From the NCBI GenBank assembly GCA_965224085.1, contig CBDCYI010000004.1:224001-288000 (forward strand): DNA of 64,000 bases. The letters are read 5' to 3'. The notes beneath the pieces were generated by a model. The model saw only the letters and a list, made by a program, of their open reading frames with translations, was not told the DNA's origin and ran no database searches. A program made the position numbers and the translations under genes. Shown in pieces: positions 28,493-36,630 of the stretch. The DNA is from Candidatus Marinacidobacterales bacterium. GTDB taxonomy: Bacteria; Acidobacteriota; Vicinamibacteria; Marinacidobacterales; SMYC01. The stretch's first letter is position 1. Every line of letters begins with the position of its first letter.

Positions 28493-28500
28493 CCCGGCAG
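28493..28500 (+). repeat. Left target-site duplication CCCGGCAG
   Basis: Identical to 35780-35787; a 10-bp reading CCCCGGCAGG is also possible if the IS tip is GGGATG. Confidence 0.85.
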
Positions 28501-28597
28501 GGGGATGGTCGAGTAGCTCAGCCATTCGGCTTTCGCCCTCACAGATCCGAGCGTGCGGCTTTCCCGCACTCGGCTCCTCCTGAAGGTATACCCGAAA

Positions 28598-29977
28598 TCA
28601 GACAAGGCAAGGTAGTCGGGACGGAGTGAGGTGAGGGACTGGTAGGGGAAAGCGCTCCAACAACAAGTGAAAACGAGGCCAGGTCATTCGGCGCTGACTC
28701 CGCCGACGAAGGCTTCGAAACCACAACCGTGTCACCTCCTCAGAAAAGGATTGGAGAGAGCGGATGTTGCTGGGAAGTCCGTAGTACGCGTAGTGACCGC
28801 GCAGCACCTGGCAAAGCCAGCGATGCTGGACGGCGACTGGAGCATGCATACGTTGCTTCGCGCGAAGCCGTAGCGACTTGAGTTTGGCTCGTAGCCGCTG
28901 GCTCTGCGTTTTGCGCTTCACGACGAAACGGCCATCGCGGGTTCTCCCACAATAATGAGTGAAACCCAGGAAAGCGAACGTCGCACACCGCCGAAGGCCC
29001 CGTTGCTCGCGTGACAAGGAAGGTAATCTCCCGAACTCGAGCAAACGGGTCTTGTTCTCGTGGAGCGCAAGCCCGAATCGGGCTAGTCGCTCCTTGAGCG
29101 CTCTCATCATCCTGCTGGCATCGGTCCGATGCTGGAAGCCCATGACGAAGTCGTCAGCGTATCGCACGATGGAAATACGGCCTTGTGCTTCGAGCCGGCG
29201 CCATCGATGAACCCACAGATCTAGAACGTAGTGCAGAAAGACGTTAGCCAAGAGCGGGCTCACACCTGCCCCTTGCGGTGTCCCTTCAGTTGTCTCGCTC
29301 CACTCTCCTTTCTCCAGTACGCCGGCTCGCAACCACTGACGGATGAGTCGAAGGATGCGTTTGTCGGCGACCCGGTGCGAAAGCATCCGCATCAACCACT
29401 CGTGGTCCACCGAGTCGAAGAACTTGCGGATGTCCGCGTCGAGAACCCAGTTCACGCGTTGCGTCATGAGCGCGGTGTGGAGCGCGTGCAACGCTTGGTG
29501 CGGGCTCCGTCCGGGCCGAAACCCGTACGAGAACCCGATGAAATCGACTTCGTAGACGGCGCTCAAAACCTCGGCTACCGCTCCTTGGACAATCTTGTCT
29601 TCCAGTGCGGGGATGCCAAGAGGGCGCTTTCCGCCATCCGACTTAGGAATGTACACGCGCCGCACCGGTAGTGGTCGGTAGCGACCGGCGTGTACCCGCG
29701 AGCAAAGATCCTTGATGTTGCTCACGAAGTTCTTCTCGTAATCGGCGACAGTCTCTCCGTCGACACCAGCGCTTGCGCTGCGCTTCAACCGACGAAACGC
29801 TCGATAGAGCGCTTCGTGATCCACGTGATGCAGCAACGCAGTGAACCGAGCCTTTCTATCTCGCTTCGCTGCTTCGTTCACCCGCGTGAGATTTGGCGGT
29901 AAGGCGACCCGGCGCTGTGTCCGGACCTTAGCCCTCTCCCGTGGGTTCCCTCCAGGCCGATCCCTTCCCTCCACCAT
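28598..29977 (-). CDS. ltrA: Group II intron A reverse transcriptase/maturase (no endonuclease domain); start codon uncertain
   Basis: FTALLHH, SAGVDG, RPLGIP, GFSYGFRPGR, GTPQG, RYADDF, X domain LRGHYAYY. Confidence 0.92.
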   Translation of the reverse strand: MVEGRDRPGGNPRERAKVRTQRRVALPPNLTRVNEAAKRDRKARFTALLHHVDHEALYRAFRRLKRSASAGVDGETVADYEKNFVSNIKDLCSRVHAGRYRPLPVRRVYIPKSDGGKRPLGIPALEDKIVQGAVAEVLSAVYEVDFIGFSYGFRPGRSPHQALHALHTALMTQRVNWVLDADIRKFFDSVDHEWLMRMLSHRVADKRILRLIRQWLRAGVLEKGEWSETTEGTPQGAGVSPLLANVFLHYVLDLWVHRWRRLEAQGRISIVRYADDFVMGFQHRTDASRMMRALKERLARFGLALHENKTRLLEFGRLPSLSREQRGLRRCATFAFLGFTHYCGRTRDGRFVVKRKTQSQRLRAKLKSLRLRAKQRMHAPVAVQHRWLCQVLRGHYAYYGLPSNIRSLQSFSEEVTRLWFRSLRRRSQRRMTWPRFHLLLERFPLPVPHLTPSRLPCLV

Positions 29978-30004
29978 CTCGTTGCCTTCGATAGCTTCCT
30001 CAGT

Positions 30005-32037
30005 GTCGGGTCGGAGGGGGCGCACCGCAGCGCTGACCCCCGTCCGCCGCTCAAACCGGACATACAGTTTTCCCGTATCCGGCTTTCACAAAGGTTGGAT
30101 TATTCATCGCGGCTTGATGGAAGGAATCAGGAAGACAAAGCGTACGAGGCCCATCTCATCGTAGAGCTGACGCTCCGGGAGCTGCTTCCACCCCCGACAG
30201 CGCCAGCGTTTGAACCGATGCGACCAGATACGTCGCAGGATCCAACGATCGAGACGCGCGAAGAGCTTGCGGACGTGAGCTTTATGATAGTAAAGACCCC
30301 AACCGCGAATAACCGGGTTGATCTCGTCGATTAGCTGCTGCGTACTCACAGGAGCTTTGCGACAGGTCCGTCGCCGAATCTGATCCTTGAAGTGCTGGAG
30401 CGACTTCTGTCGAGGGTACGCGTACAGGTCACCCTTGCGGACACCCGTACGGATCTTGTGTGAGGGTAGGGCCAAAGGGCGACTACCCCGCTTGATCTTG
30501 TATCCCAAGAACTCGAAGCCGTGTGCAACGTGAACGATACGAGTCTTCTCCACGTTCAAGGTTACACCCAACGTCGTAAGGATCATCCGGGCTTCGGCCA
30601 GCACCTTCTGGGCCTCTGCCTTGGTGCAGCATGTCACGACCCAGTCGTCGGCATACCGCGTCAGGCGATAGCCACGATGGCGCATCTCCCGATCAAACGG
30701 AGTCAAAAGGACGTTACTTAAGATCGGTGAGACCACACCGCCTTGCGGTGCACCTTGCTCGGTCGGGAGCCGTCTCCCCTCCGCCATGCAGCCTGCTTTG
30801 AGCATGCTGCGAATAAGACGAAGGACGCGACCATCCGACACTCGCTTGGCAACAAGAGCGAGGAGCTTCTCATGGTCCACAGTCCCAAAGAAATTGGAAA
30901 GATCCGCATCCACGATCCACTCGTAACCCTCTTCGATCTCTTGCCAGATCTTGCGTAAAGCATCCTTTGTCGATCTTCCTCGTCGATATCCGAAGCTGGC
31001 GGCATCGAACACCTGCTCGAAGATCGGTTCCAACCGGTTCTGCAGTGCCTGCTGACACACGCGGTCATAAACGGCCGGAATGCCGAGCGGGCGGAACTTT
31101 CCCGGTTGTCCAGCCTTGGGAATGAGTTTCTGCCGAACAGGTAGTGGACGATAGGCATCGGTCTTGAGCTCCTCATGGAGTCGGTTGAGGTGCGCATCAA
31201 GCTGCTCCTCAAACTCGTCCAGAGTTTGTCCATCGATGCCACCGGCACCCTTGTTCCGCTTCACTCGGTTCCAGGCCAGCTCCAAGTTCTTCCGCTTGTA
31301 TATCTTGTCCACCAGAGAGTGGACCTTCCTCTCACCCGTTGGGTTCAACCAGGCCGACAGTTTCCTCGGACGATCACTTCTGGGTCTTTCACTAAAGGAA
31401 CTTATCCGCGTCATCGCCCTTACTCGTCTGTCATCCTTGTTGTCACCAACCACCTTTGCCAGCCCCCTTCCCCAGCCCACTCGGCTGCCGATCTCTCGAT
31501 CACACGACTTTCACCGCGCTTCAGGTACTATTGGGCTGTCCGACGACTCACCCGGCTTCACTTCCCATTTCGCTCTCGCTTATAGGGTCGCTTATCCCGA
31601 CGCCACTCGGGAACCCAATGAGCCCTCCTGGGGTCACGTCCAGATCTTCCGTACCGTGCCGTCCGCAAACACCTTGATTCGGTGGGTGAATGAGAACGCC
31701 TTCGCCTCCATAGTGCAGGCTCGACCTTGCCCCACCTTTGGCCGACCGGTTCATCAACGGGGTCGCCCCCTCGATTACGGCCCGGTACTGCTCCGCATAC
31801 CCTTCAGATTCCACCTCGCGGTGGACACCCTGTCCTCCAGTTGTCCAGTGGACAGAACCCGAACTTAGGTACATCCCCTTGGCAGTAGCCATCGTTTCCA
31901 ACTTCGTGCCCGTTTAGGGTTCTCCTTATCCGCGTTCCCCGGCCAGCGAGGCGTTACCCCCGCTTTTGGATATGGCGCTCCTCATCCGAGCACCAGAGGG
32001 ACTTCAACCTTCCTGATCTGGACGCTGCCCAGCACAC
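30005..32037 (-). mobile_element. Group II intron B nested in intron A (twintron)
   Basis: Starts GTGTG at 32037, ends ...CCGACCCGAC at 30005; domain V AAGCCGGATACGGGAAAACTGTATGTCCGGTTT; removal restores GATTCATAGT|ACTGAGG exactly as in the uninterrupted right copy. Confidence 0.92.
30104..31414 (-). CDS. ltrA: Group II intron B reverse transcriptase/maturase (no endonuclease domain); start codon uncertain
   Basis: NKGAGGIDG, RPLGIP, SFGYRRGRS, GAPQGGVVSP, RYADDW, INPVIRGWGLYY. Confidence 0.92.
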   Translation of the reverse strand: MTRISSFSERPRSDRPRKLSAWLNPTGERKVHSLVDKIYKRKNLELAWNRVKRNKGAGGIDGQTLDEFEEQLDAHLNRLHEELKTDAYRPLPVRQKLIPKAGQPGKFRPLGIPAVYDRVCQQALQNRLEPIFEQVFDAASFGYRRGRSTKDALRKIWQEIEEGYEWIVDADLSNFFGTVDHEKLLALVAKRVSDGRVLRLIRSMLKAGCMAEGRRLPTEQGAPQGGVVSPILSNVLLTPFDREMRHRGYRLTRYADDWVVTCCTKAEAQKVLAEARMILTTLGVTLNVEKTRIVHVAHGFEFLGYKIKRGSRPLALPSHKIRTGVRKGDLYAYPRQKSLQHFKDQIRRRTCRKAPVSTQQLIDEINPVIRGWGLYYHKAHVRKLFARLDRWILRRIWSHRFKRWRCRGWKQLPERQLYDEMGLVRFVFLIPSIKPR

Positions 32038-32433
32038 ACTATGAATCGGTCCGACTTCCGGCCTCAGCTCAGCACCGCGCTTCGGTTTTCCCTTGCGCGA
32101 CGCCCCCATCGGTGACCATTCCGATGGACCCGGCCGGACCTCCTGGGTCCCGAAAGGAACTCTTCGTACGTGATGTGGTCCACGACCCCGGCGGAGCGTA
32201 ACCATCTCGCGATAGCGATGGCCCACATGCTGCCTTCATTGACGGGAATCAACTCGGCCTTCCGCGATATTCAGCATTTCGAGGCTACATTCACACACCC
32301 TGCACGACCCCTGTCTACGCTTCGGACCCCGCGTTGCCACGACGCCCGCAAGACTCGGTCCCGACCTGTCCGCTACGACTTTTGGTCGGATTGGACTTCC
32401 ACCCATAGGCTCCTTTCAGTTAGCCCAGCGCAC

Positions 32434-32470
32434 TCCCGTCGGATGTTGAATTTGGTCGGGTAGCGGCGGC
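32434..32470 (+). repeat. Inner part of the IS256 terminal inverted repeat downstream of the transposase
   Basis: TCCCGTCGGATGTTGAATTTGGTCGGGTAGCGGCGGC, inverted relative to 33846-33879. Confidence 0.85.
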
Positions 32471-32484
32471 ACCTGTGAATACTC

Positions 32485-33780
32485 TTAGGCAGCAAACTCA
32501 TCGCTGTCAAGAGATTTCTGTTTGCTTCTAAGCGCGTGAACGAGAGCGCCCATATGGCGATAGCCTTTGATACGCCGGAACTTCTTCTCCGCCGTGACGA
32601 CGCCGAGAGCGGTCCATCGGCGAACCATCGAAGGACTCTTCCAACGCTTGACGTTTCTCGATACTCTTCGAATGGTTCCGTTGAGATTCTCAATGGCGTT
32701 CGTCGTGGCAAGAGACTGGCGAAGTAACTCGGGCAGAGCGAGCTTCACGACCGTGAGCGTCTCTTCCATCCCTTCGCGAAGGCTTCCGGCAGCTTCATCG
32801 TGGCTGTTTCGCTCGAGCCACGACACCAATGCCTGAAGTCGCTTGCGCGCCTTGTCGGCACTCTTGCACTTGTAGGCTTTCTTCATCGTCTGGAGCACGT
32901 AGGCGTGACGAGACTTGGGAAGGTACGAGCGAAGATTTCGGAGTTTATGGATCTGGCACCTTTGGATGACCGCGAGATCCCCCAACACGTCGACGAGTGC
33001 CTTGCGGATACCTTTGCCTCCGTCCACTACACAGAGAATCGACTCATCGACGCGCAAGCCTCGCTCGAGAAGGTCCTGCAACATCGCGGTGCACACCCGA
33101 GAGTTTTCCGTCGAGCCCAGCCATATACCCAGGGGCACCTTCGTTCCATCTATTGTGATACCGAGAGTTACGACGACGGTCTGGCCGGCCACCTCAAGGC
33201 CATCCATCATCAGTGCCGCAAGTTCGTACTCCTCTAGCCGCCGAGACAGGTATTGCTCGAGCTTCTTCGTCGTCTGGCTTACGAGGTGACGGCTGGCGGC
33301 ACTCTTGCTCGTGCCACGAGACTTCAACTTGGCCGCGGGTTTGTCCAGACTCCGTTCGTAATTTCGGGTCGATACCCCCACCAAGATCTGATTCAACACT
33401 CGCTCTGGAAGCGGGTCTTCTTCGCGGAAGGCTTCGAAGTGTGGAAGCGACGCCTCCTCACCAGACTTCGAACGCACTCGAGGTCGCGACACTTGGATGC
33501 GACGACCACCGAAGCTCAGCTCTCCGTTCGTGCTCCCCCAGTGGTTATGAGTTCGCTTCTTCTCGTGCTTGCCCTTCGGTCCCGCGATCTCCTCGGCGTC
33601 CTCTCTGAGCAGTAGGTGCAGAGCTGTCAGTCCTTGCTCGTACACCCATTCCGTCAGGTCCGCCTTCGTGGCAGCGATCCCAGCTATCATCGGTAGCAGT
33701 ATCTGACCGACTTGGCCAACTACCTTGCCCGTAGGCGAGTGCGTTTGCTTTTTTACTGGCTTCTTTGATTTCCTAGGCAT
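32485..33780 (-). CDS. IS256-family (Mutator-like) transposase
   Basis: GVSTRNY, LMMDG, VVDGGKG, IQRCQIHKLRN, TTNAIENLN; 431 aa, intact. Confidence 0.92.
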   Translation of the reverse strand: MPRKSKKPVKKQTHSPTGKVVGQVGQILLPMIAGIAATKADLTEWVYEQGLTALHLLLREDAEEIAGPKGKHEKKRTHNHWGSTNGELSFGGRRIQVSRPRVRSKSGEEASLPHFEAFREEDPLPERVLNQILVGVSTRNYERSLDKPAAKLKSRGTSKSAASRHLVSQTTKKLEQYLSRRLEEYELAALMMDGLEVAGQTVVVTLGITIDGTKVPLGIWLGSTENSRVCTAMLQDLLERGLRVDESILCVVDGGKGIRKALVDVLGDLAVIQRCQIHKLRNLRSYLPKSRHAYVLQTMKKAYKCKSADKARKRLQALVSWLERNSHDEAAGSLREGMEETLTVVKLALPELLRQSLATTNAIENLNGTIRRVSRNVKRWKSPSMVRRWTALGVVTAEKKFRRIKGYRHMGALVHALRSKQKSLDSDEFAA

Positions 33781-33845
33781 TGGTGGCTCCTTGTCCCCCT
33801 CTGGAGACGGTTGTTTGGCAGACCTATTTTTAGGCCGGCCAAGGA

Positions 33846-33879
33846 GCCGCCGCTACCCCAAATTCAACATCCGGCGGGA
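33846..33879 (-). repeat. Inner part of the IS256 terminal inverted repeat upstream of the transposase
   Basis: Reverse complement TCCCGCCGGATGTTGAATTTGGGGTAGCGGCGGC. Confidence 0.85.
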
Positions 33880-35772
33880 GTGCGCTGGGCTAACTGAAAG
33901 GAGCCTATGGGTGGAAGTCCAATCCGACCAAAAGTCGTAGCGGACAGGTCGGGACCGAGTCTTGCGGGCGTCGTGGCAACGCGGGGTCCGAAGCGTAGAC
34001 AGGGGTCGTGCAGGGTGTGTGAATGTAGCCTCGAAATGCTGAATATCGCGGAAGGCCGAGTTGATTCCCGTCAATGAAGGCAGCATGTGGGCCATCGCTA
34101 TCGCGAGATGGTTACGCTCCGCCGGGGTCGTGGACCACATCACGTACGAAGAGTTCCTTTCGGGACCCAGGAGGTCCGGCCGGGTCCATCGGAATGGTCA
34201 CCGATGGGGGCGTCGCGCAAGGGAAAACCGAAGCGCGGTGCTGAGCTGAGGCCGGAAGTCGGACCGATTCATAGTACTGAGGAAGCTATCGAAGGCAACG
34301 AGATGGTGGAGGGAAGGGATCGGCCTGGAGGGAACCCACGGGAGAGGGCTAAGGTCCGGACACAGCGCCGGGTCGCCTTACCGCCAAATCTCACGCGGGT
34401 GAACGAAGCAGCGAAGCGAGATAGAAAGGCTCGGTTCACTGCGTTGCTGCATCACGTGGATCACGAAGCGCTCTATCGAGCGTTTCGTCGGTTGAAGCGC
34501 AGCGCAAGCGCTGGTGTCGACGGAGAGACTGTCGCCGATTACGAGAAGAACTTCGTGAGCAACATCAAGGATCTTTGCTCGCGGGTACACGCCGGTCGCT
34601 ACCGACCACTACCGGTGCGGCGCGTGTACATTCCTAAGTCGGATGGCGGAAAGCGCCCTCTTGGCATCCCCGCACTGGAAGACAAGATTGTCCAAGGAGC
34701 GGTAGCCGAGGTTTTGAGCGCCGTCTACGAAGTCGATTTCATCGGGTTCTCGTACGGGTTTCGGCCCGGACGGAGCCCGCACCAAGCGTTGCACGCGCTC
34801 CACACCGCGCTCATGACGCAACGCGTGAACTGGGTTCTCGACGCGGACATCCGCAAGTTCTTCGACTCGGTGGACCACGAGTGGTTGATGCGGATGCTTT
34901 CGCACCGGGTCGCCGACAAACGCATCCTTCGACTCATCCGTCAGTGGTTGCGAGCCGGCGTACTGGAGAAAGGAGAGTGGAGCGAGACAACTGAAGGGAC
35001 ACCGCAAGGGGCAGGTGTGAGCCCGCTCTTGGCTAACGTCTTTCTGCACTACGTTCTAGATCTGTGGGTTCATCGATGGCGCCGGCTCGAAGCACAAGGC
35101 CGTATTTCCATCGTGCGATACGCTGACGACTTCGTCATGGGCTTCCAGCATCGGACCGATGCCAGCAGGATGATGAGAGCGCTCAAGGAGCGACTAGCCC
35201 GATTCGGGCTTGCGCTCCACGAGAACAAGACCCGTTTGCTCGAGTTCGGGAGATTACCTTCCTTGTCACGCGAGCAACGGGGCCTTCGGCGGTGTGCGAC
35301 GTTCGCTTTCCTGGGTTTCACTCATTATTGTGGGAGAACCCGCGATGGCCGTTTCGTCGTGAAGCGCAAAACGCAGAGCCAGCGGCTACGAGCCAAACTC
35401 AAGTCGCTACGGCTTCGCGCGAAGCAACGTATGCATGCTCCAGTCGCCGTCCAGCATCGCTGGCTTTGCCAGGTGCTGCGCGGTCACTACGCGTACTACG
35501 GACTTCCCAGCAACATCCGCTCTCTCCAATCCTTTTCTGAGGAGGTGACACGGTTGTGGTTTCGAAGCCTTCGTCGGCGGAGTCAGCGCCGAATGACCTG
35601 GCCTCGTTTTCACTTGTTGTTGGAGCGCTTTCCCCTACCAGTCCCTCACCTCACTCCGTCCCGACTACCTTGCCTTGTCTGATTTCGGGTATACCTTCAG
35701 GAGGAGCCGAGTGCGGGAAAGCCGCACGCTCGGATCTGTGAGGGCGAAAGCCGAATGGCTGAGCTACTCGAC
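33880..35772 (+). mobile_element. Group II intron A, right copy (uninterrupted, 1893 nt)
   Basis: GTGCG start, domain V/VI at about 35704-35772, ends AC; RT ORF inside. Confidence 0.93.
34303..35682 (+). CDS. ltrA: Group II intron A reverse transcriptase/maturase (no endonuclease domain); start codon uncertain
   Basis: Translation identical to 28598-29977; YADD motif. Confidence 0.92.
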   Translation: MVEGRDRPGGNPRERAKVRTQRRVALPPNLTRVNEAAKRDRKARFTALLHHVDHEALYRAFRRLKRSASAGVDGETVADYEKNFVSNIKDLCSRVHAGRYRPLPVRRVYIPKSDGGKRPLGIPALEDKIVQGAVAEVLSAVYEVDFIGFSYGFRPGRSPHQALHALHTALMTQRVNWVLDADIRKFFDSVDHEWLMRMLSHRVADKRILRLIRQWLRAGVLEKGEWSETTEGTPQGAGVSPLLANVFLHYVLDLWVHRWRRLEAQGRISIVRYADDFVMGFQHRTDASRMMRALKERLARFGLALHENKTRLLEFGRLPSLSREQRGLRRCATFAFLGFTHYCGRTRDGRFVVKRKTQSQRLRAKLKSLRLRAKQRMHAPVAVQHRWLCQVLRGHYAYYGLPSNIRSLQSFSEEVTRLWFRSLRRRSQRRMTWPRFHLLLERFPLPVPHLTPSRLPCLV

Positions 35773-35779
35773 CATCCCC

Positions 35780-35787
35780 CCCGGCAG
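35780..35787 (+). repeat. Right target-site duplication CCCGGCAG
   Basis: Matches 28493-28500. Confidence 0.85.
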
Positions 35788-36170: not shown

Positions 36171-36630
36171 TGCAAAGATCATCGAAGCCCTCAACGACGT
36201 CCTGACCGCCGAGCTCACCGCCATCAACCAGTATTTCGTGCATGCCAAGATGTGCGAGAACTGGGGCTATAAACGCCTCGCCAATAAAAAGCGCGACGAG
36301 TCCATCGAGGAGATGAAACACGCCGATAGCGTGATTCTCCGGATTCTCTTTCTCGACGGCATCCCGAATATGCAGCGCCTCAGCCCGGTGCGCGTCGGCG
36401 AGGAAGCGGTCGAGCAGCACAAGCTCGATTTGGAGCTCGAGCTCGACGCCATAACAAGGCTGAACGACACGATCGCGCTTTGTCGCGAGAAGGGCGATAA
36501 CGGCACGCGCGAGCTACTCGACAGCATCTTGAAAGAAGAAGAGGACAGCGTCGATTGGCTCGAGGCACAGCTCCATCTCGCCGAAGAAGTGGGCCGCGAG
36601 CGCTACCTCGCCGAGCAGATCAATTCTTAG
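36160..36630 (+). CDS. bfr: Bacterioferritin
   Basis: MKGD..IIEALN..LTAELTAINQYFVH, EEMKHAD, RILFLDGIPN. Confidence 0.95.
   Translation: MKGDAKIIEALNDVLTAELTAINQYFVHAKMCENWGYKRLANKKRDESIEEMKHADSVILRILFLDGIPNMQRLSPVRVGEEAVEQHKLDLELELDAITRLNDTIALCREKGDNGTRELLDSILKEEEDSVDWLEAQLHLAEEVGRERYLAEQINS

Follow-up and report, generated by a model that had tools for sequence, protein, structure and literature searches.

Normally, group II introns are thought to survive by homing to sites at which they do no harm. In Methanosarcina acetivorans, as Dai and Zimmerly reportedly described in 2003, they home into the open reading frames (ORFs) of related introns, whereas the target of the intron described here is a non-coding ribozyme motif. 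This intron, B, was found in a 64,000-nucleotide (nt) stretch of the genome of a Candidatus Marinacidobacterales bacterium (positions 224,001 to 288,000 of contig CBDCYI010000004.1, assembly GCA_965224085.1; hereafter the window, with all positions counted from its first letter), where it lies inside another group II intron, A, which in turn interrupts the end of an IS256-family insertion sequence (IS). Nesting as such is not new: earlier work establishes both twintrons and introns that home into other introns or into insertion sequences (PMC2882425, PMC4424553, PMC4476101), and the nested introns of M. acetivorans, as presented in a review, resemble B in being a case of intron-in-intron homing (PMC4424553).

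In Thermosynechococcus elongatus (Mohr, Ghanem and Lambowitz 2010, PMC2882425) the inner intron copies are described as identical, as are the copies of B, and independent mobility of inner and outer introns is argued there from evidence like ours. Those inner introns, however, are ORF-less, lie within domain IV, where the host reverse transcriptase (RT) ORF has a start codon on either side of them, and in that account come from a single family of close relatives in one genome, whereas B encodes its own RT, splits the internal loop of domain III and has hosts belonging to several subfamilies and phyla. In the plastid of Porphyridium purpureum (Perrineau et al. 2015, PMC4476101) the inner intron mat1f is reported from two outer introns and elsewhere, but there the site is again in domain IV, where it truncates the host intron-encoded protein (IEP), the setting is an organelle and a single related family is involved. 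Euglena chloroplast twintrons, in which removal of the inner intron is often needed before the outer one folds or splices, are degenerate organellar introns fixed in genes, and the part of the review that deals with them makes no mention of a mobile lineage with one conserved ribozyme target (PMC4424553). A full-text literature search, which did not cover two key older papers, so that an earlier account is possible, found no intron lineage that targets domain III. Two papers on intron-finding pipelines state that twintrons are discarded or missed (PMC4028801, PMC8919778), and lineages of this kind are therefore probably under-counted.

Our reading, to which we give a probability of about 0.85, is that B is one of a widespread lineage of group II introns that encode an RT, lack an endonuclease domain and home to the DNA of the domain III internal loop of other group II introns. 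In the window the insertion can be read to the nucleotide. On the minus strand the 5' junction is ...GATTCATAGT/GTGTGCTGGG, with 32037 as the first nucleotide of B, and the 3' junction is ...CTCCGACCCGAC/ACTGAGGAAG, with 30005 as the last. B follows nt 396 of the left A, a point equivalent to that after 34275 in the intact right copy; the two pieces of the left A, of 396 nt and 1497 nt, show 100% identity with the intact copy, nothing is duplicated or lost, and removing B restores the exact sequence of the outer intron, as it should in a twintron. A preliminary description of the locus had placed B after nt 396 of A and had proposed a third tier of parasitism; both hold exactly, the tiers being the IS256-family element, A in both of its terminal repeats, and B in the left A (Table 1). 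The insertion point lies between the U and the A of AUAGUA, on the 5' strand of an internal loop of domain III; the conserved J2/3 motif AGUCRGA precedes it by 13-18 nt. B itself begins with GUGUG and ends with CCCGAC (AC at the very end), termini that are kept in 10 aligned B-like introns (B-likes), and it has a domain IV stem, CAAAGGUGGUUGG/CCAACCUUUG, on both sides of its RT ORF. Its domain V/VI match to RF00029 is marginal, yet it recurs in 7/7 copies in the genome. The RT matches TIGR04416 (393 bits, cut-off 300), RVT_1 and GIIM, whereas a profile search of the same protein gave no match to an endonuclease domain. The nearest solved RT structures are the GsI-IIC RT and a 427-aa group II RT, a resemblance that assigns B to no intron class.

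The genome contains seven copies of B, all 100% identical over 2033 nt and all inside other group II introns, six of them in A at nt 396/397 and one in a third intron, C (Rfam D1D4-4), where the site reads GGGUCGGUAGU/AGCG at the junction. Eleven copies of A contain the site, six occupied and five empty, and the single IS in the window has one full and one empty A. Among close copies of C one of two is occupied, the empty one being 99% identical, and two remoter relatives with loops UAAU and UAUU are also empty. As for C itself (L001 7617-8090, contig C9), by eye its RT ORF is reduced to the first ~25 and last ~20 codons, and ~150 nt separate its domain V-like hairpin from the apparent 3' end.

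Copies of the IS differ by 0.7-1%, those of A are 99.9-100% identical and those of B 100%. Independent movement of B is indicated by the presence of identical copies in two host types, and by their complete identity as against the ~1% divergence of the flanking IS; a copy pattern of this sort was read as recent independent insertions in the discussion of PMC2882425. One may also consider that the six A::B copies go back to one event and were multiplied as a composite, by twintron retromobility or by DNA duplication and recombination. With A and B copies identical or nearly so, the order of events is unreadable from sequence, homologous recombination between identical A copies could move B, and retromobility of composite introns is given as one possible route in the discussion just cited (PMC2882425). 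We nevertheless consider this explanation improbable: five A sites are empty next to six full ones, with one of each in the same IS here; B is also present in the unrelated intron C; the IS copies that bear nests are 0.7-1% apart, so that whole nests were not copied recently; and an A RNA with 2 kb in its domain III loop would hardly be an active ribozyme.

A search of other genomes with the B RT gave 13 loci, 11 of them B-like with 62-80% amino-acid identity, from Singulisphaera, another member of Planctomycetota, Gammaproteobacteria, Myxococcales, Caballeronia, Paraburkholderia and Acetobacteraceae. All nine readable 5' flanks end in CATAGT (eight) or CGTAGT (one) after a GAGUCRGA-like sequence. 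A host intron can be recognized at 8/11 of the B-like loci, either by Rfam D1D4-6 upstream or by a second domain V or RT downstream, and at a further locus (L009) the domain III motif is present on both sides with no other host mark. In Singulisphaera sp. Ch08, near-identical B-likes have hosts of two types, and the same holds for G393, a genome of the window's own phylum. In that phylum a DNA search with the first 620 nt of B gave some match in 17 of 401 genomes, full-length in this genome and G393 only, the remaining matches, among them a weak one in the unpublished genome G049 on which nothing here depends, being conserved pieces of 31-79 nt. In G393 both B-likes are again inside other introns, and these are of two types. 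The copy at L039 (4001-6030) has degenerate junctions, with a 5' exon ending in ...CCTGTG and no canonical 3' end; on its two sides there are still the remnant of a domain III and an RT from a host intron, and the whole has the look of an old nest in decay.

Metagenomes were scanned with a pattern drawn solely from the 5' end of B-likes, and the scan is therefore blind to the flank. Among the 79 flanks of at least 25 nt (74 distinct), 77 have a J2/3-like motif at the spacing expected; CATAGT forms the end of 37 and CGTAGT that of 23, and 64 in all end in TAGT. When 20 metagenome loci were run through Rfam, the upstream DNA of 13 gave a D1-D4 match to a host on the same strand (D1D4-6 in seven, D1D4-3 in three, D1D4-2 in two and D1D4-4 in one), and matches of four kinds mean that at least four structural subfamilies of host share the site. 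That B specialises on introns, as the preliminary description had it, is thus well supported, by 7/7 copies in this genome, by 9/9 flanks in named genomes and by the motif in 77/79 metagenome flanks, and homologues in all three sets are found mostly in introns and not at other sites.

What B recognizes in these hosts can in part be read as base pairing. The loop of a hairpin in B, ACUAUG (B nt 324-329), pairs 6/6 with the 5' exon CAUAGU of A and is the exon-binding site 1 (EBS1) of B, its partner in the exon being intron-binding site 1 (IBS1); the hairpin lies exactly where it had been described. ACTATG occurs once in B, at nt 324, where ~0.5 occurrences are expected by chance, and the hexamer alone therefore proves nothing. 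Its relatives are more informative. The CACUAU core of the loop is invariant in the 10 aligned B-likes, a consensus fold puts the hairpin at the end of domain I, and all six EBS1/IBS1 pairs can form in 42/49 metagenome junctions. Compensatory change is seen at -2 in three junctions, two of which also have it at -5 (CGTACT with CAGTACGG twice, CATACT with CAGTATGG once), while CATTATGG loops are mismatched in three metagenome cases. Further upstream, the -7..-12 strand of the target, which belongs to its basal helix, varies between hosts of identical or near-identical B-likes, and this indicates that no classical contiguous IBS2 is used. Two candidates for EBS2 were rejected. AAUCG (B nt 262), the complement of CGAUU at -7..-11 of A, is conserved whatever the host helix and sits in a stem with compensatory change (AUCG/UGAU to GUCG/UGAC in L003 and L011). 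AUCYGAA (B nt 229), compared with UCRGA of J2/3, was promising in 11 named pairs and failed in metagenomes (C/A 19, C/G 20, T/G 2, T/C 1, C/T 1; Fisher p = 0.49).

Should B be an ordinary intron that landed in A by chance, with the shared motif reflecting nothing but common descent of the flanks, a six-nucleotide EBS1 match would be no surprise, being expected ~0.5 times per 2 kb. Such an origin does not explain, however, why the same site is used in at least four Rfam D1-D4 host subfamilies, why there are 57 distinct -12..-6 strings among the 79 metagenome flanks, why the hosts are spread over Planctomycetota, Gammaproteobacteria, Myxococcales, Burkholderiaceae and Acetobacteraceae, or why EBS1 and IBS1 change together. 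We regard it as effectively refuted by the named-genome and metagenome flanks, the host subfamilies and the EBS1 compensation, and as very improbable indeed.

The target has a conserved architecture that goes well beyond the paired hexamer. Its elements follow each other as a basal helix, an asymmetric loop (AUAGUA / GAAG) and a distal stem, placed in A directly 5' of domain IV; the latter is identified by the 8-bp stem CCUGGAGG/CCUUCAGG, since this stem adjoins domain V. In six of the nine hosts for which both flanks are known there is a basal helix of 5-7 bp, differing in sequence from host to host, which pairs nucleotides ending at -6 or -7 with those directly after GRA-NN-NAAG. Positions +2/+3 pair with the variable NN of GRA-NN-NAAG in 7/9 of these hosts, as GC/GC, CU/GG or CC/GG, and by eye as GG/CC in L010. 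B has the same element itself, with a loop AAUAGUA opposite GAAG and three distal hairpins, and the fold recurs in 41 distinct B-likes, where 96.7% of cells are paired and 16/22 pairs show compensatory change; 0/500 shuffles scored as high, and sliding the partners collapses the pairing. The last hairpin of the curated RF01998 consensus ('...AGAAgUCAGCAGAgGcCAUAGUAgccgcc...ggcggcGAAGGgC') likewise has a basal stem, AUAGUA opposite GAAG and a distal stem. AGUA/GAA is what we take to be the usual sequence of an S-turn. This name for the domain III internal loop is found in PMC3669008 and is applied here by sequence, not by three-dimensional comparison. The covariation and the RF01998 consensus confirm the earlier view that the conserved start of domain III is interrupted, and narrow it to the 5' strand of the internal loop; nor is the loop a dispensable one, and the stem of domain IV in A is found 3' of the insertion point. 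That the insertion point belongs to domain IV, the ORF loop tolerant of insertions that is used in the Thermosynechococcus and Porphyridium twintrons, might be thought because the first ATG of the long A ORF (34303) follows only 27 nt later, but this is the least credible alternative, as the ATG is inside the 3' half of domain III (GGUGGAGGGAAG, 34305-34316), the closing helix of domain III ends at 34323 with the stem CCUGGAGG/CCUUCAGG beginning at 34324, and this loop is also the last hairpin in the RF01998 consensus.

Two pairings considered for A, GAAGG/CCUUC as its domain IV stem and a small hairpin with AGUCRGA in the loop, were superseded by the covarying basal helix. Matches to RF01998 (D1D4-1) were also seen to straddle junctions between host and B-like (L002 47-113, L051 545-631, L058 545-607), covering J2/3 and domain III of the host and aligning the 5' end of the B-like as the missing distal stem, so that automated annotation could misread such junctions.

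With regard to mechanism, the excised B lariat, together with its own RT, may reverse-splice into single-stranded target DNA at the replication fork, the nascent DNA strand then priming cDNA synthesis; a replication-fork primer is what the review describes for introns that lack an endonuclease (PMC4424553). The J2/3 motif AGUCRGA is a candidate second determinant, which could be read by the protein or through an RNA contact. Since the function of the host ribozyme holds the sequence constant, every intron in which AUAGUA is kept could serve as a site, and insertion there would harm no cellular gene. The lineage would thus have a site where it does the cell no harm and which the host cannot alter, in a catalytic-core loop common to many intron classes, and every functional intron would be a landing pad for it. 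It adds a third layer of parasitism, intron upon intron upon IS.

Because B splits domain III, the left A should be able to fold this domain and to splice only after B has spliced out, which would restore AUAGU/A exactly; the nest may then be a natural system in which one ribozyme has to splice before another can fold. The transposase gene precedes the left A::B on the strand that both share, and read-through transcripts would consequently contain it. Short contigs identical to parts of A or B are present in four metatranscriptome runs (X1-X4, one study). Two RNA-library contigs span an uninterrupted 34275/34276, which fits splicing as well as an A free of B, and the libraries may hold DNA.

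Several observations weigh against the view that B-like introns home to domain III of other introns, or limit its reach. The preliminary description asked whether the flanks are always domain III; this stood for 9/9 named flanks and 77/79 metagenome flanks, and fell short in the two metagenome flanks without the motif and in L003 and L011, which have the 5' motif only, the 3' half of domain III being absent from the host in L003. No Rfam D1-D4 match was present upstream at 7/20 metagenome loci. The scan yielded at least 120 stretches, 80 of which were fetched, and B-like relatives are not independent samples, so that there were fewer separate insertion events than the counts suggest. On the side of recognition, both EBS2 candidates failed among the B-likes, and neither EBS2 nor EBS3 could be assigned. 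As A and B copies are identical, a recombination route is open, and it is possible that B spread among A copies in this way. Finally, no X1-X4 contig, all of them short, bridges 30004/30005 or 32037/32038. One of the two motif-less flanks (L106) comes from a head-to-tail tandem, in which a B-like starts directly behind the 3' end of another (CTCCGACCCGAC).

The preliminary description also suggested that B avoids itself through a mismatch. Its own segment, CCCAATAGTACCTGAAG, does differ at -6, the loop at 31526-31532 reading AAUAGUA with A in that position. Of the 41 B-likes, 25 have A at -6 of their own loop, 11 have G and 5 have C, while C is found at -6 in 73/79 occupied metagenome host sites. 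In this genome the domain III loops of B are occupied in 0/7 cases as against 6/11 for A (Fisher p = 0.038), and by eye none of the 79 metagenome flanks has the B-like own context GUCGUCGGAC. While these lineage counts fit self-avoidance, B entered intron C at GGTAGT despite a mismatch at -6, which weighs against it, and the reading is weakened further as the C at -6 also closes the host helix and the sequences are related. Self-avoidance through the -6 mismatch can thus be put forward as a hypothesis drawn from sequence comparison.

A more far-reaching and tentative idea, which we think less probable than not, is that introns of the B lineage live as obligate parasites on group II introns, engaged in an arms race over six nucleotides of the domain III loop. 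B would exploit a loop that the host cannot alter without losing catalysis; a non-C at -6 would break pairing with its own EBS1 G, in a loop of its own that is one nucleotide longer; and hosts would escape through loop variants such as UAAU and UAUU in the empty relatives of C. If true, the domain III loop variants seen across bacterial group II introns would have been shaped in part by the B lineage.

Table 1. Features of the nested element in the window, with their positions and strands.
Feature	Position	Strand	Remarks
Left 8-bp target-site duplication	28493-28500		CCCGGCAG, read from sequence; same as 35780-35787
IS256-family element with introns (whole nest)	28501-35779		
Outer 7 nt of left IS terminal repeat	28501-28507	-	CATCCCC; 3' exon of left A
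Left intron A, nt 397-1893	28508-30004	-	Rest of domain III, domain IV with RT ORF, domains V/VI; RF00029 at 28508-28578, 53.2 bits
Intron B	30005-32037	-	Complete group II intron, 2033 nt, no endonuclease domain
B domains V/VI	30005-30087	-	RF00029, 41.3 bits (cut-off 40)
B reverse transcriptase/maturase ORF (P0004)	30104-31414	-	436 aa, YADD
B's own J2/3 and domain III	31453-31547	-	J2/3 GUCGUCGGA; basal helix CAGCCC/GGGCUG
B EBS1 hairpin	31704-31720	-	GCCT-GCACTATGG-AGGC; loop GCACUAUGG
Left intron A, nt 1-396	32038-32433	-	Domains I, II, J2/3, domain III 5' strand to AUAGU; RF02005 at 32176-32399, 140.9 bits
IS256-family element body	32434-33879	-	Transposase ORF 32485-33780
Right intron A	33880-35772	+	Intact, 1893 nt; empty B site 34275/34276; RF00029 at 35702-35772
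A J2/3	34256-34263	+	AAGUCGGA
A domain III basal helix	34264-34270 with 34317-34323	+	CCGAUUC with GGAUCGG
A domain III loop	34271-34276	+	AUAGUA, opposite GAAG
A domain IV 5' strand	34324-34331	+	CCUGGAGG
A domain IV 3' strand	35694-35701	+	CCUUCAGG
A domain V	35704-35736	+	
Outer 7 nt of right IS terminal repeat	35773-35779		
Right target-site duplication	35780-35787		CCCGGCAG

The outermost element belongs to the IS256 family by its IS256-type transposase (NF033543, 225 bits, cut-off 150; also a match to PF00872), its terminal inverted repeats and its 8-bp target duplication, a second example of which, CTCACGGA, is on contig C11 of this genome. Its inverted ends have the common sequence CCGCCGCTACCC...AAATTCAACATCCG[A/G]CGGGA followed by CATCCCC, and in both of them A is inserted 7 nt short of the tip. 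The 5' exon of A thus ends in ...TTCAACATCCG[A/G]CGGGA, the intron starts with GUGCG and the 3' exon is CATCCCC. The last sequence follows 12/12 of the A 3' ends in the genome (including those on contigs C11, C5 and C9), and since all of them run into it, A can be regarded as a specialist on this IS end. Host introns of other genomes that resemble A have unrelated 5' exons. In an RNA-library contig (run X3), a ~96% identical copy of the IS has ...GGGGATG joined straight to the IS body (compare 32434); it represents an IS end without A, which may derive from spliced RNA or from a related strain whose site is empty.

The long ORF of A deserves a remark as well. Its first ATG (34303) falls within the 3' half of domain III, and the first in-frame start noticed 3' of the domain IV stem is a GTG at 34399; for this reason the true IEP of A is probably ~427 aa long, and not 459. 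About 720 nt downstream of the right A, a stretch of 32 nt (36491-36522) shares 75% identity with the final 32 nt of A and may be the remnant of another intron 3' end.

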